A stretch of 64,000 nt of DNA. Source: Escherichia coli (GTDB taxonomy: Bacteria; Pseudomonadota; Gammaproteobacteria; Enterobacterales; Enterobacteriaceae). The notes beneath the pieces are model-generated. The model did not search any database and was not told the origin of the DNA. It was given only the letters and a program-made list of their open reading frames with translations. Below are positions 10,815-13,151 of the stretch, one piece after another. Where the stretch lies: the NCBI RefSeq assembly GCF_041886205.1, contig NZ_CP169029.1. The stretch is one strand, 5' to 3'. The stretch's first letter is position 1. Every line of letters starts with the position of its first letter. The position numbers were made by a program, and so were the translations under genes.

Positions 10815-11528
10815 CTAATGAAAAAAACGCGTATGCCTTTGCCAGACAAGCGTTATAGCTATCGCGGCAAGTATCCCAAAGAAGCCGATAAAATAGTAAT
10901 AGAGTGTTAATGCACCTGTAAAAGCGCAACGAACCGGACTCCACAACTCTTCACTATGGCATTTCCCCGCCAATTCAAGGAGCTTATTTCGTCCATGCGA
11001 GATAATGCCTGACCATAACACAATCATTAAGCAACTTATTACCCAAATGGGCCGTTCACTCATTAATGCCGCATTCACGATGATTACCAGGGCCAACCCT
11101 GTCAACGTCATCATAATGATAAAACGGTGAGAACCAGGATCAACATTAAATAATAAACCGGCCAGCATACTGATTAAAAACATCGCGCCCGCAGTGCTGA
11201 ACACGATGATAATGGCATATACAGGAACTAAACTTGCAACGACAATCGCCACCAAAGAGAGTAAAAACAGATATATTACGCCCGCGATGGCGGCATTTAT
11301 CTTGTTGATATCCTTACTTAAGCCATACATACAAAGTAATAATAACCCTATGGCGACATACATTGGTGGTGAATCATATTTGGTTGCCGTAATTTCGAGA
11401 TACTTAGCTCCCCAGGCTAGTCCTGCGGTTGCCACCAAACCTAAAGCGGTAATGAGCCATATGCTGTTTAATATCCTGGCTTCGTGCTGAAAATCATTAG
11501 TTATGTTATTTGCTGAGCGCGAATTCAT
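10815..11528 (-). CDS. ybhM: inner membrane protein, YbhM-like
   Basis: 237 aa 7-TM-like ORF; length and position match ybhM. Confidence 0.7.
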   Translation of the reverse strand: MNSRSANNITNDFQHEARILNSIWLITALGLVATAGLAWGAKYLEITATKYDSPPMYVAIGLLLLCMYGLSKDINKINAAIAGVIYLFLLSLVAIVVASLVPVYAIIIVFSTAGAMFLISMLAGLLFNVDPGSHRFIIMMTLTGLALVIIVNAALMSERPIWVISCLMIVLWSGIISHGRNKLLELAGKCHSEELWSPVRCAFTGALTLYYYFIGFFGILAAIAITLVWQRHTRFFH

Positions 11529-11597
11529 TATTTTTATATCCTTAAGTTAAATATCATTATCTATTCCAACTAACGCAATAAAACTCGTCAATTCGCA

Positions 11598-12302
11598 CTA
11601 CCACACTAAACCATTAATAAATTCAAGAACTGTTACAGTAATCCTAAAGAGGACGCTTAAAATACTAAAATAGAGTGTTATTGCCCCAGGAACGATACAG
11701 CGAAGAGAACCTGAAATTTCAGAGGTGTCGGCAACACGGATCAAATCTTCCAGTGTTGTTGCTTCACAGGCAGCCGTAATGCCCCAGATAAAGACAGTCA
11801 AAATACTCGCTAACCACACGGAAAAACTGCTGGTAAGGATCAGGTTAACAACAAAAGCAATACTCAAACCACAGAAAATATATGAATATAACTGTCTGAC
11901 TGGTGGGATAACCCTATTACTACAAGAGCAAATCAGCGCCATTGCGGCAAACATCCCTCCCGTAATTCCCATTACCGTCGCTATGCTCGAAAAGGTATAA
12001 AGGCTGGCGAAGAGAAAGCCAACAAGAAGGATTATTAGCAGATAGACCAGACATGCGCCTGATACATTCAGTCTTTTCAGGGCGTTGTTTAACCAGAGAC
12101 CACCTATTATCAGCGCAGCCAAAGCGAAGACAAACGCACCTGGAGACTTTTGTGACGTAACCCAATGCAAATGCTGAAATATCCAGGCACAGCCTGCCGT
12201 AGCCCATACTCCAGCTGCTGTTAACCACCAAATGAGAAGCAGCATTTTGCTGAGCGAAGCACTTTTTTGCTGTAATTGAGTAGCAGTGGATTGTCTGTTC
12301 AA
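11598..12302 (-). CDS. inner membrane protein, paralogue of the adjacent ybhM-like gene
   Basis: 234 aa hydrophobic ORF with the same architecture as 10815..11528 (shared ATAG-AW and GA-TLY motifs). Confidence 0.55.
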   Translation of the reverse strand: MNRQSTATQLQQKSASLSKMLLLIWWLTAAGVWATAGCAWIFQHLHWVTSQKSPGAFVFALAALIIGGLWLNNALKRLNVSGACLVYLLIILLVGFLFASLYTFSSIATVMGITGGMFAAMALICSCSNRVIPPVRQLYSYIFCGLSIAFVVNLILTSSFSVWLASILTVFIWGITAACEATTLEDLIRVADTSEISGSLRCIVPGAITLYFSILSVLFRITVTVLEFINGLVW

Positions 12303-12446
12303 ATGCGTTATCTGTCCCTGAAATTACGTAGTGGACATAGTCTGGCATTTGCCGCGATTCAGTTCTCATGTAAATGAGCGGAATAGTCTTTATAAAATCC
12401 GAAAAAAATCCCGGCTCCAGGCCGGGATCAGCAGGAAGAAGAGAAT

Positions 12447-13151
12447 TTAACGGCGGTTGCCGAAGATCCGCAACAACATCAGGAACAGGTTGATGAAGTC
12501 CAGATACAAGGTTAACGCGCCAAGAATGGAATATTTGCGCAGGTTCGACGTGTCGCGGGTATCAATCTGCTCACCCATATTTTTCAGTTTCTGGGTGTCA
12601 TACGCCGTCAATCCGACAAAGACAATCACGCCGATGTAGGTGACTGCCCACATCAACGCTTCGCTTTTCAGCCAGAAGTTGACCAGCGATGCCAGCACAA
12701 TGCCGATTAACGCCATAAACAGCATATTGCCAAAGCCGCTTAGATCGCGCTTCGTGGTGTAACCATACAGGCTCATTGCGCCGAACATCCCGGCAGTAAC
12801 GACGAAAGTACTGGCGATAGAAGCAGCGGTATAGACAATGAAAATACTGGAAAGCGTAAGACCCGTCAGCGCCGAATAAAGCATAAAGAGCATAGTCGTT
12901 ACACCTGCGCTCAGCTTTTGAATCATCGCTGATAACAGAATAACCAATGCTAATTGCGCGATGATCAGACCGATTAAAAAGACACGGTTAGTGAACAACA
13001 GCTCCATCACGGCCGCGGAATTAGCCGCATACCAGGCAACAAATGCGGTCAGCAACAAGCCAACGGTCATCCAGCCATAGACTTGCGCCATATAAGTTTG
13101 CAAGCCAGCCCGGGGTTGTACAATTGAATCAGAACGTGGGAATCTGTCCAT
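12447..13151 (-). CDS. ybhL: BAX inhibitor-1 family inner membrane protein YbhL
   Basis: start taken at MDRFPRSD giving 234 aa; BI-1/YccA-like sequence. Confidence 0.8.
   Translation of the reverse strand: MDRFPRSDSIVQPRAGLQTYMAQVYGWMTVGLLLTAFVAWYAANSAAVMELLFTNRVFLIGLIIAQLALVILLSAMIQKLSAGVTTMLFMLYSALTGLTLSSIFIVYTAASIASTFVVTAGMFGAMSLYGYTTKRDLSGFGNMLFMALIGIVLASLVNFWLKSEALMWAVTYIGVIVFVGLTAYDTQKLKNMGEQIDTRDTSNLRKYSILGALTLYLDFINLFLMLLRIFGNRR

Follow-up and report, generated by a model that had tools for sequence, protein, structure and literature searches.

A probably ancestral Bax inhibitor-1 family gene between ybhL and ybhM is missing from the K-12-type haplotype of Escherichia coli

A third Bax inhibitor-1 (BI-1) family gene, found between ybhL and ybhM in a minority of Escherichia coli genomes, is best explained as an intact, chromosomal and weakly constrained accessory member of the TMBIM/Bax1-I family, which is ancestral at this position and has been replaced by an unrelated spacer of ~125 bp in ~86% of genomes. 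We put the probability of this reading at roughly 0.8. It is based on the low identity of the product to YbhM, the presence of orthologues in the same slot, synonymous divergence similar to that of the flanks, and the second gene found at this position in Salmonella and Kluyvera. These comparisons reverse the polarity of the initial annotation, which had regarded the gene as a possible addition relative to K-12; an ancestral gene appears to be missing from the K-12-type haplotype, and K-12 would represent the derived state.

The window (the whole 64,000-nt stretch of E. coli DNA that was analysed) contains three tandem genes for BI-1-family polytopic membrane proteins, as the initial annotation had described, and the products of all three match Pfam PF01027 (Bax1-I) with scores exceeding the gathering score of 34.1 bits. 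The features of the locus are as follows.

10815-11528, minus strand: ybhM, 237 aa; Bax1-I match of 75 bits.
11463-12446, minus strand: segment defining the three-gene haplotype, from the ybhL stop codon to about nucleotide 66 of ybhM.
11529-11597, minus strand: 69-bp spacer separating the middle gene from ybhM; its K-12 homologue is the 3' part of the ybhL-ybhM spacer.
11598-12302, minus strand: middle gene, 234 aa, TTG start; Bax1-I match of 47.6 bits.
12303-12406, minus strand: upstream region of the middle gene, presumed promoter and leader, with no counterpart in K-12.
12407-12429, minus strand: intrinsic-terminator-like hairpin and T-run directly 3' of the ybhL stop codon, from a terminator scan.
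12447-13151, minus strand: ybhL, 234 aa, a canonical, highly conserved BI-1/YccA-family gene; Bax1-I match of 212 bits.

The start of ybhL is given as in RefSeq and K-12 (13151), and the mechanical ORF list placed it at 13232. The resemblance noted earlier between the two adjacent ORFs reflects homology, with 29% identity between the middle protein and YbhM over 213 aa (E = 2e-15).

Between moaE and ybhN, K-12 MG1655 carries ybhL (b0786) and ybhM (b0787) alone, separated by a 204-bp spacer. The two-gene K-12 arrangement given in the initial annotation was accurate; the reference contains two ORFs at this position rather than the same three, and the gene at 11598-12302 is the additional one. 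In a blastn comparison, positions 11561-12400 of the window (840 bp) corresponded to 125 bp in K-12, and the ~100-bp K-12 segment at the position of 12303-12406 was unrelated sequence. No remnant of the middle gene was found when this K-12-specific segment was aligned locally with the window, L003, L004 and L006, the scores being no higher than those of shuffles. Loss by simple deletion is therefore not demonstrable. The 69-bp spacer, aligned locally in the same four sequences, was 22-30% diverged from the K-12 spacer. The ybhL gene of the window is 98.3% identical to b0786 at the nucleotide level, and ybhM is mosaic; of its 33 differences from K-12, 17 fall in nucleotides 1-33 and 3 in nucleotides 34-66, the remainder of the gene being K-12-like. 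We rejected the idea that K-12 ybhM is a chimera of the middle-gene 5' end and the ybhM body, as its 5' end and upstream sequence align to the 5' region of the window's own ybhM and not to the corresponding part of the middle gene.

Among complete E. coli genomes, the middle gene was detected in 749 of 5,426 (14%), in every case on the chromosome, and the K-12-type spacer in 4,648 (~86%), whereas YbhM is encoded by nearly all E. coli. The gene is already known, being annotated in RefSeq as "Bax inhibitor-1 family protein" (WP_001299026.1), and the finding of an extra gene is real but ordinary. It is of little importance in itself, and its value lies in correcting a plausible misreading of which state is ancestral and which derived.

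The middle ORF appears to be a real gene, given that its frame (234-235 codons) is intact in six alleles diverged by up to dS 0.40, that its dN/dS (0.40-0.51) is significantly below 1 (binomial p ~1e-3 in each of the four pairs tested), and that the AF2 model of its product is very confident (pLDDT 92.2, pTM 0.88). Moreover, conservation is strong in TM4-TM6 and in the Glu180 motif, and for the motif it extends to other genera. Constraint on the gene is nevertheless weak. The dN/dS of ~0.4 is about tenfold that of ybhL (~0.03, range 0.02-0.05), with ybhM at 0.23-0.36; codons 2-20 look neutral and show no constraint; and frameshifted copies occur in some strains (P0008, P0013, P0019). The Shine-Dalgarno-like AGGGA read off the sequence is weak and distant from the TTG start, and an alternative in-frame ATG at 12245 (Met20) would yield a protein of 215 aa. 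Together with the state of ybhM, which is a pseudogene in E. coli 042 and truncated in many strains, these traits are consistent with a decaying relic, namely an open but non-functional ORF heading for loss as in K-12-type strains. The long-preserved frame, the purifying signal in four pairs, the conserved core and the confident model argue against this alternative, and we regard it as unlikely.

The Bax1-I match of the middle protein spans most of the domain (residues 20-221 of the protein, positions 3-203 of the 207 in the profile), and a profile of the middle-gene subfamily aligned with the canonical YbhL-like profile over 215 columns (hhalign, 99.7% probability, E = 2e-26). The AF2 model comprises seven helices (residues 3-44, 54-74, 80-101, 104-128, 134-156, 160-192 and 198-233), which match the hydropathy peaks. 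Fold searches with this model did not retrieve YetJ, and the profile built from the middle gene alone had no match among PDB sequences. Neither the middle protein nor YbhM matched an NCBIfam model.

BsYetJ of Bacillus subtilis (PDB 4PGR) is a pH-sensitive Ca2+-leak channel of the TMBIM family, with a di-aspartyl sensor formed by D171 and D195. YbhL aligns to BsYetJ (E = 5e-9) and retains both sensor aspartates (D185, D218). The middle protein is homologous to these proteins over ~215 columns and shares with them the seven helices and the GA(L/I)TLY motif in TM7. In contrast, it lacks the di-aspartyl sensor, with Glu180/Ser213 at the two positions in every allele examined; the corresponding residues are Gly/Tyr in YbhM and Lys/Asp in the fourth E. 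albertii paralogue. The locus thus offers a natural series of sensor variants, from Asp/Asp through Glu/Ser and Gly/Tyr to Lys/Asp, as a ready set for probing the di-aspartyl latch in bacteria. The strong constraint on ybhL is a further difference from the middle gene. YbhM (K-12 b0787, "Bax1-I family protein YbhM") shares several traits with the middle protein; both proteins have a ~19-residue cytoplasmic tail before TM1, and both genes are AT-rich and fast-evolving, with close homologues limited to Escherichia. For YbhM, the source-named close homologues (at least 63% identity) were from Escherichia or Shigella throughout.

YccA, a polytopic inner-membrane protein of the BI-1 family, modulates the FtsH protease and has an N-terminal cytoplasmic tail long enough for FtsH engagement. 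The middle protein belongs to the same Pfam family; however, it does not match the NCBIfam YccA equivalog NF007765 (cut-off 353 bits), to which YbhL scores 23 bits. Its own tail would be a polar stretch of ~19 residues if the TTG is used, and appears free of sequence constraint. Our literature search found no functional work on ybhM or the middle gene, and no expression or phenotype data. The product is predicted to be a seven-helix inner-membrane protein with a cytoplasmic N-terminus, in which the TM4-TM6 core would be retained and the di-aspartyl pH latch of BsYetJ replaced by Glu180/Ser213. Judging from the family, it would most likely be a non-essential cation-leak or membrane-homeostasis protein, altered or ungated, and not a canonical pH-gated channel; it might possibly serve as an FtsH/HflKC-associated modulator similar to YccA.

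The distribution of relatives points to an origin of the middle gene before the split of E. coli and E. albertii. The same slot holds an orthologue in E. albertii (78% aa identity), the cryptic-clade Escherichia sp. MOD1-EC7003 (87%) and the divergent E. coli L003 (85%), with dS values for the middle gene (0.14-0.40) comparable to those of its flanks. A scan of genome contigs with degenerate peptide patterns gave two loci among the matches listed, one of them in a contaminated MAG; the cryptic clades were represented among the matches listed by one species.

Downstream of ybhL, there is one tandem paralogue in Salmonella, in Kluyvera and in K-12-type E. coli (ybhM), two in the window (the middle gene and ybhM) and three in E. 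albertii. With two to four BI-1 paralogues at this locus across Escherichia and its relatives, the K-12 names ybhL and ybhM fall short of covering it. The window, E. albertii, Salmonella and Kluyvera all have 144-146 bp between the stop codon of ybhL and the start that follows. The second Bax1-I gene of Salmonella enterica (P0026/P0208) and Kluyvera georgiana (P0021/P0163) begins at the same position, 145-146 bp after the ybhL stop, encodes 235 aa and carries, as does the middle gene, a Glu in the first sensor position with a non-acidic residue in the second. Outside Escherichia, the middle gene has no better-scoring relative. The middle-gene profile scored 149 bits against Kluyvera, 139 against Superficieibacter, and 113 and 102 against Salmonella, versus 72 against YbhM. 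Similarly, in blastp searches the Kluyvera protein scored 140 bits to the middle protein and 93 to YbhM, and the Salmonella protein 93 and 74, respectively. The differences are an identity of 35-37%, a GTG or ATG start instead of TTG, and intergenic DNA that is barely conserved.

In a neighbour-joining (NJ) tree, the middle gene and YbhM fell into separate clades that each had 100% support and were not sisters, and YbhM grouped with the fourth E. albertii paralogue at 91%. The deep paralogue nodes had bootstrap values of 3-53, so the orthology with the Salmonella and Kluyvera genes rests on position, scores and the shared residue signature. Judged on these features, no other Escherichia gene appears to match the second gene of the other genera as closely as the middle gene does, in either position or sequence. 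The middle gene is one of a small group of fast-evolving paralogues, restricted to Enterobacteriaceae, that lie in tandem downstream of the conserved ybhL.

The base composition and the patchy distribution could instead indicate a horizontally acquired islet, with foreign AT-rich DNA having entered the ybhL-ybhM interval of some E. coli, chiefly STEC and EAEC lineages of B1 type. The O104:H4, O103 and O121 carriers of the middle gene are, we presume, phylogroup B1. The GC content of the middle gene is 43.7%, against a window mean of 50.3% and values of 52-57% for moaE, clsB and ybhN; however, ybhM, which is near-universal in E. coli, is equally AT-rich (42.6%). A study in K-12 reported H-NS binding, along with a constitutive promoter, in the ybhL-ybhM spacer (PMC3946193), which would also suit an islet. 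On the other hand, no marks of a mobile element were found around the gene, whether flanking repeats, an integrase, a tRNA, or plasmid or phage copies, and the slot is filled in the sister species, while in Salmonella and Kluyvera a relative of the gene stands at the same distance from ybhL. We consider acquisition from outside the genus rather improbable.

The sequence uniformity that might favour an islet has another explanation. Among the 749 copies, 729 are at least 99% identical, and over the segment 11463-12446 the window and strain P393-F10 agree at 99.9-100% of positions, with flanking genes that differ by 2-3%. A near-invariant segment on such divergent flanks implies recent within-species spread by recombination. 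K-12 and P393-F10, in turn, have near-identical ybhL genes (2 differences), yet differ in the presence of the middle gene. These patterns indicate that the presence or absence state has moved between genetic backgrounds by homologous recombination. Such within-species transfer fits an ancestral gene replaced in K-12-type strains and is no sign of an origin outside the genus. The locus is a small worked case of an indel polymorphism shuffled between backgrounds by recombination.

The genes downstream of ybhL could alternatively form a diversifying membrane array of immunity or decoy proteins directed against membrane-acting toxins or phage proteins (colicins, CDI, T6SS effectors), rather than ion channels, with the polymorphism kept by conflict and not drift. 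This seems very improbable. None of the three BI-1 proteins of the window matched a known defence or immunity family, SUKH-4 or DUF3969 being found only further downstream and in other strains; PADLOC returned no match for them or for neighbouring products seen in other strains. The members of such an array would be the middle gene, ybhM, the fourth E. albertii paralogue and, in some strains, the DUF3969 and SUKH-4 orphan immunity genes; their traits are variable copy number, degenerate BI-1 paralogues, loss of the channel latch and AT-rich DNA of the H-NS type.

The initial annotation had suggested a lineage-specific duplicate; a recent tandem duplication of ybhM (or ybhL) in the ancestry of the window strain would account for two adjacent genes of one family and similar length (234 versus 237 aa) on the same strand and for an occurrence in only 14% of genomes, but is hardly credible given the 29% identity to YbhM and 28% to YbhL (over 123 aa), a DNA similarity among the window's BI-1 genes confined to a single 24-nt motif, the same-slot orthologues in E. 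albertii, cryptic-clade Escherichia and divergent E. coli with dS matching the flanks, and the separate placement of the middle-gene and YbhM clades.

For the middle gene, the intergenic sequence provides some indication of how it might be expressed. The hairpin after ybhL (9-bp stem, 6 of the pairs GC, then TTTTTTT) is kept, with changes in the stem or loop, in K-12, E. albertii, a cryptic-clade Escherichia, Salmonella and Kluyvera. Since this terminator-like element lies directly 3' of ybhL, the middle gene probably needs a promoter of its own. The upstream region at 12303-12406, including the TTG start, hardly varies between the window, E. albertii and Escherichia sp. MOD1-EC7003, whereas Salmonella and Kluyvera share only a TGCCA core with them. 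A promoter scan of this region found no consensus sigma-70 site and nothing convincing. The middle gene would probably be expressed from its own promoter within AT-rich DNA of the H-NS-bound type. The scan for terminator-like sites found none in the 69-bp spacer that follows the gene, and transcription may read through into ybhM.

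Three tandem ORFs with small membrane-protein products had been noted between ybhN and moaE in the initial annotation, and both the ORF list and the matches of all three products to Pfam PF01027 (Bax1-I) bore this out. The scores were 75 bits for ybhM, 47.6 bits for the middle gene, and 212 bits for ybhL, all exceeding the 34.1-bit gathering score. The features in the window are as follows.

9823-10779, + strand: ybhN, one flank of the three-ORF set
10815-11528, - strand: ybhM, 237 aa
11598-12302, - strand: middle gene, 234 aa, TTG start
12429-12407: intrinsic-terminator-like hairpin, 3' of ybhL
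12447-13151, - strand: ybhL, 234 aa, start at 13151 according to RefSeq and K-12
13288-13740: moaE, the other flank

The mechanical ORF list extended ybhL to an upstream ATG at 13232. In the closest genome (100% identity over 3 kb), RefSeq annotates exactly these three genes, and the middle gene product (WP_001299026.1) is named "Bax inhibitor-1 family protein"; the middle gene is an accessory gene of a known family, annotated already. Additionally, a 149-aa ORF in another frame (window 11920-12369, - strand) overlaps its 5' half, and in some strains frameshifted copies join this frame to the middle-gene body (proteins P0003, P0008, and P0013; 249-256 aa, annotated as 'hypothetical proteins').

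The middle gene is indeed extra relative to K-12, as had been suspected. According to the gene list and blastn collinearity, MG1655 has the order moaE, ybhL (b0786), ybhM (b0787), ybhN with no third gene and a ybhL-ybhM spacer of 204 bp, and the window is collinear with K-12 except for 840 bp (11561-12400) versus 125 bp in K-12. The break is not clean. Nucleotides 1-33 of ybhM contain 17 differences between the window and K-12, with further ones up to nt 66, and the remainder is 99.3% identical. Over its final 60-90 bp, the K-12 spacer is homologous to the window spacer that separates ybhM from the middle gene (22-30% diverged); the other ~100 bp showed no resemblance to the middle gene or its alleles, scoring the same as shuffles. 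According to a genomic SELEX study (PMC3946193), the spacer between ybhL and ybhM in K-12 contains an H-NS site and a constitutive RpoD promoter.

Among 5,426 complete E. coli genomes, 749 carry the middle gene, in every case chromosomally rather than on a plasmid, with at least 99% identity in 729 carriers; the K-12-type spacer was found in 4,648. These two states together cover nearly the whole species, and the presence or absence of the gene is ordinary pan-genome variation. The carriers include O104:H4 C227-11 and O121 and O103 STEC, which we take to belong to phylogroup B1.

The further suggestion of a lineage-specific duplicate did not hold. The middle protein shares 29% identity with YbhM (E = 2e-15) and 28% with YbhL over 123 residues, the DNA shared between the genes amounts to one 24-nt motif, and a search for repeats flanking the middle-gene segment found none. 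The corresponding slot is filled by an intact orthologue, again starting with TTG, in two divergent E. coli (L003, L004), Escherichia sp. MOD1-EC7003 (L006; 87% aa identity), and E. albertii (L011; 78% aa identity). The dS values of the middle gene (0.14-0.40) lie in the same range as those of the flanking genes for the same genome pairs; for the window versus L006, they were 0.18 for the middle gene, 0.27 for ybhL, and 0.20 for clsB. The identities, the 24-nt limit of shared DNA, the same-slot orthologues, and the flank-like dS rule out a recent copy of a neighbour. The orthologues, the 29% identity to YbhM, and the matching dS indicate that the gene has descended vertically since before the E. 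coli/E. albertii split. A 1,438-bp contig assigned to a Collinsella sp. MAG (L005, JAIJJM010000781.1) is 98.7% identical to window 11108-12545 and is contaminating E. coli sequence.

Within E. coli, homologous recombination has carried the indel from one background to another. The window and strain P393-F10, a typical carrier, differ at 1/849 positions in the middle gene plus its upstream region and by 2-3% in ybhN, ybhM, ybhL, moaE, and moaD; moreover, K-12 and P393-F10 share ybhL (2 differences), yet have opposite states of the middle gene. The ybhM body and ybhN of the window are K-12-like (5 and 0 differences). The window strain is an uncommon mosaic, and only six genomes showed at least 99% identity across the 3-kb query.

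A profile of middle-gene alleles retrieved only 14 matches at E<=1e-10 from 1.84 billion representative proteins, the best outside Escherichia being from Kluyvera georgiana, Superficieibacter, Salmonella enterica, Pseudocitrobacter, and Phytobacter. The other genera scored 149, 139, 113, and 102 bits, versus 72 bits for YbhM. By blastp, the Kluyvera protein gave 140 bits to the middle protein and 93 to YbhM, and the Salmonella protein 93 and 74 bits. In both Salmonella and Kluyvera, the matching gene is the first after ybhL, and the distance from the ybhL stop to the next start is 145-146 bp; the corresponding values for the window and E. albertii are 144 and 146 bp. All YbhM homologues of at least 63% identity with a source name came from Escherichia or Shigella. 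In the NJ tree, bootstrap support was 100 for the middle-gene clade, 100 for the YbhM clade, and 91 for YbhM plus a fourth tandem paralogue present in E. albertii. Based on position, spacing, scores, and a common residue signature, the second gene of the other genera would have its Escherichia counterpart in the middle gene, the deeper tree nodes being weak (bootstrap 3-53). The fourth paralogue (E. albertii L011 6498-7211, 237 aa; also P0027 from Escherichia cryptic clades) scores 27 bits in Pfam, under the threshold, and is 37% identical to YbhM.

The middle gene is intact and weakly constrained, and encodes a seven-helix BI-1-family inner-membrane protein. AF2, given an alignment of 50 sequences, modelled seven helices (pLDDT 92.2, pTM 0.88), and aligning a subfamily profile free of canonical members to a YbhL-like profile gave a probability of 99.7% (E = 2e-26, 215 columns). 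YbhL resembles BsYetJ, the pH-sensitive Ca2+-leak channel of Bacillus subtilis, in keeping both pH-latch aspartates (D185 and D218, aligned with YDLNQIK and LYLDFINLF in 4PGR). In contrast, the middle protein lacks the di-aspartyl latch, with Glu180/Ser213 in all alleles examined.

Residues at the first and second sensor positions
YbhL: Asp, Asp
Middle gene: Glu180, Ser213
Second gene of Salmonella / Kluyvera: Glu, Gly / Ser
YbhM: Gly, Tyr
Fourth E. albertii paralogue: Lys, Asp

Because of the missing latch, a canonical pH-gated Ca2+-leak channel seems unlikely; an altered or ungated leak, or a membrane-homeostasis protein, would be more likely. The protein might also be a YccA-like partner of FtsH/HflKC, but it did not match the YccA equivalog model. 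A literature search found no experimental work on ybhM or the middle gene.

For the middle gene, dN/dS was 0.40-0.51 and lay significantly under 1 in all four pairs tested (p ~1e-3 for each), compared with 0.23-0.36 for ybhM, 0.02-0.05 for ybhL, and mostly 0.00-0.06 for moaE and clsB, with one low-divergence pair higher. Six alleles vary mostly in the N-terminal tail, first periplasmic loop, last cytoplasmic loop, and TM7, and TM4-TM6 are conserved. Codons 2-20 show no constraint. Since some E. albertii annotations begin at Met20, translation may start at either the TTG at 12302 or the ATG at 12245. The middle gene (43.7% GC) and ybhM (42.6%) are AT-rich compared with moaE, clsB, and ybhN (52-57%). 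Downstream, ybhM follows across a 69-bp spacer in which the scan found no terminator. In E. coli 042, ybhM is a pseudogene with an internal stop (L008 2795-3508), and many truncated or frameshifted YbhM products of 130-222 aa are on record, including from Shigella dysenteriae.

One feature alone is less ordinary: the locus acts like an array of degenerate BI-1 paralogues that expands and contracts, and orphan immunity-type genes (DUF3969, SUKH-4) come after it in other strains. This leaves room for an immunity or decoy role of the array, at low probability. The ybhM-ybhN cassette of other strains contains DUF3969 and a 73-aa ORF, to which E. coli 042 and E. albertii add unnamed ORFs and a SUKH-4 immunity protein; the DUF3969 segment occurs in 29/5,426 E. 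coli genomes. The window has no cassette, the matching position being a 35-bp gap (10780-10814).

Positions of the variable cassette
L003 5546-6138
L004 5583-6174
L008 (E. coli 042) 3567-5490
L011 (E. albertii) 7273-8462

In Salmonella enterica (L009 5732-6908), the interval from the second Bax1-I gene to ybhN contains two ORFs, of 202 and 186 aa, neither with a Pfam or PADLOC match. In E. albertii (L011/L012) and Kluyvera georgiana (L013/L014), ybhN, clsB, and ybhP are absent at the locus and the BI-1 array directly adjoins ybhQ; these genomes thus lack cardiolipin synthase B and the genes next to it at that position. In L006 (7127-7299), the match to the window ybhN is confined to its first 112 nt and its last 69 nt, indicating a large internal deletion.
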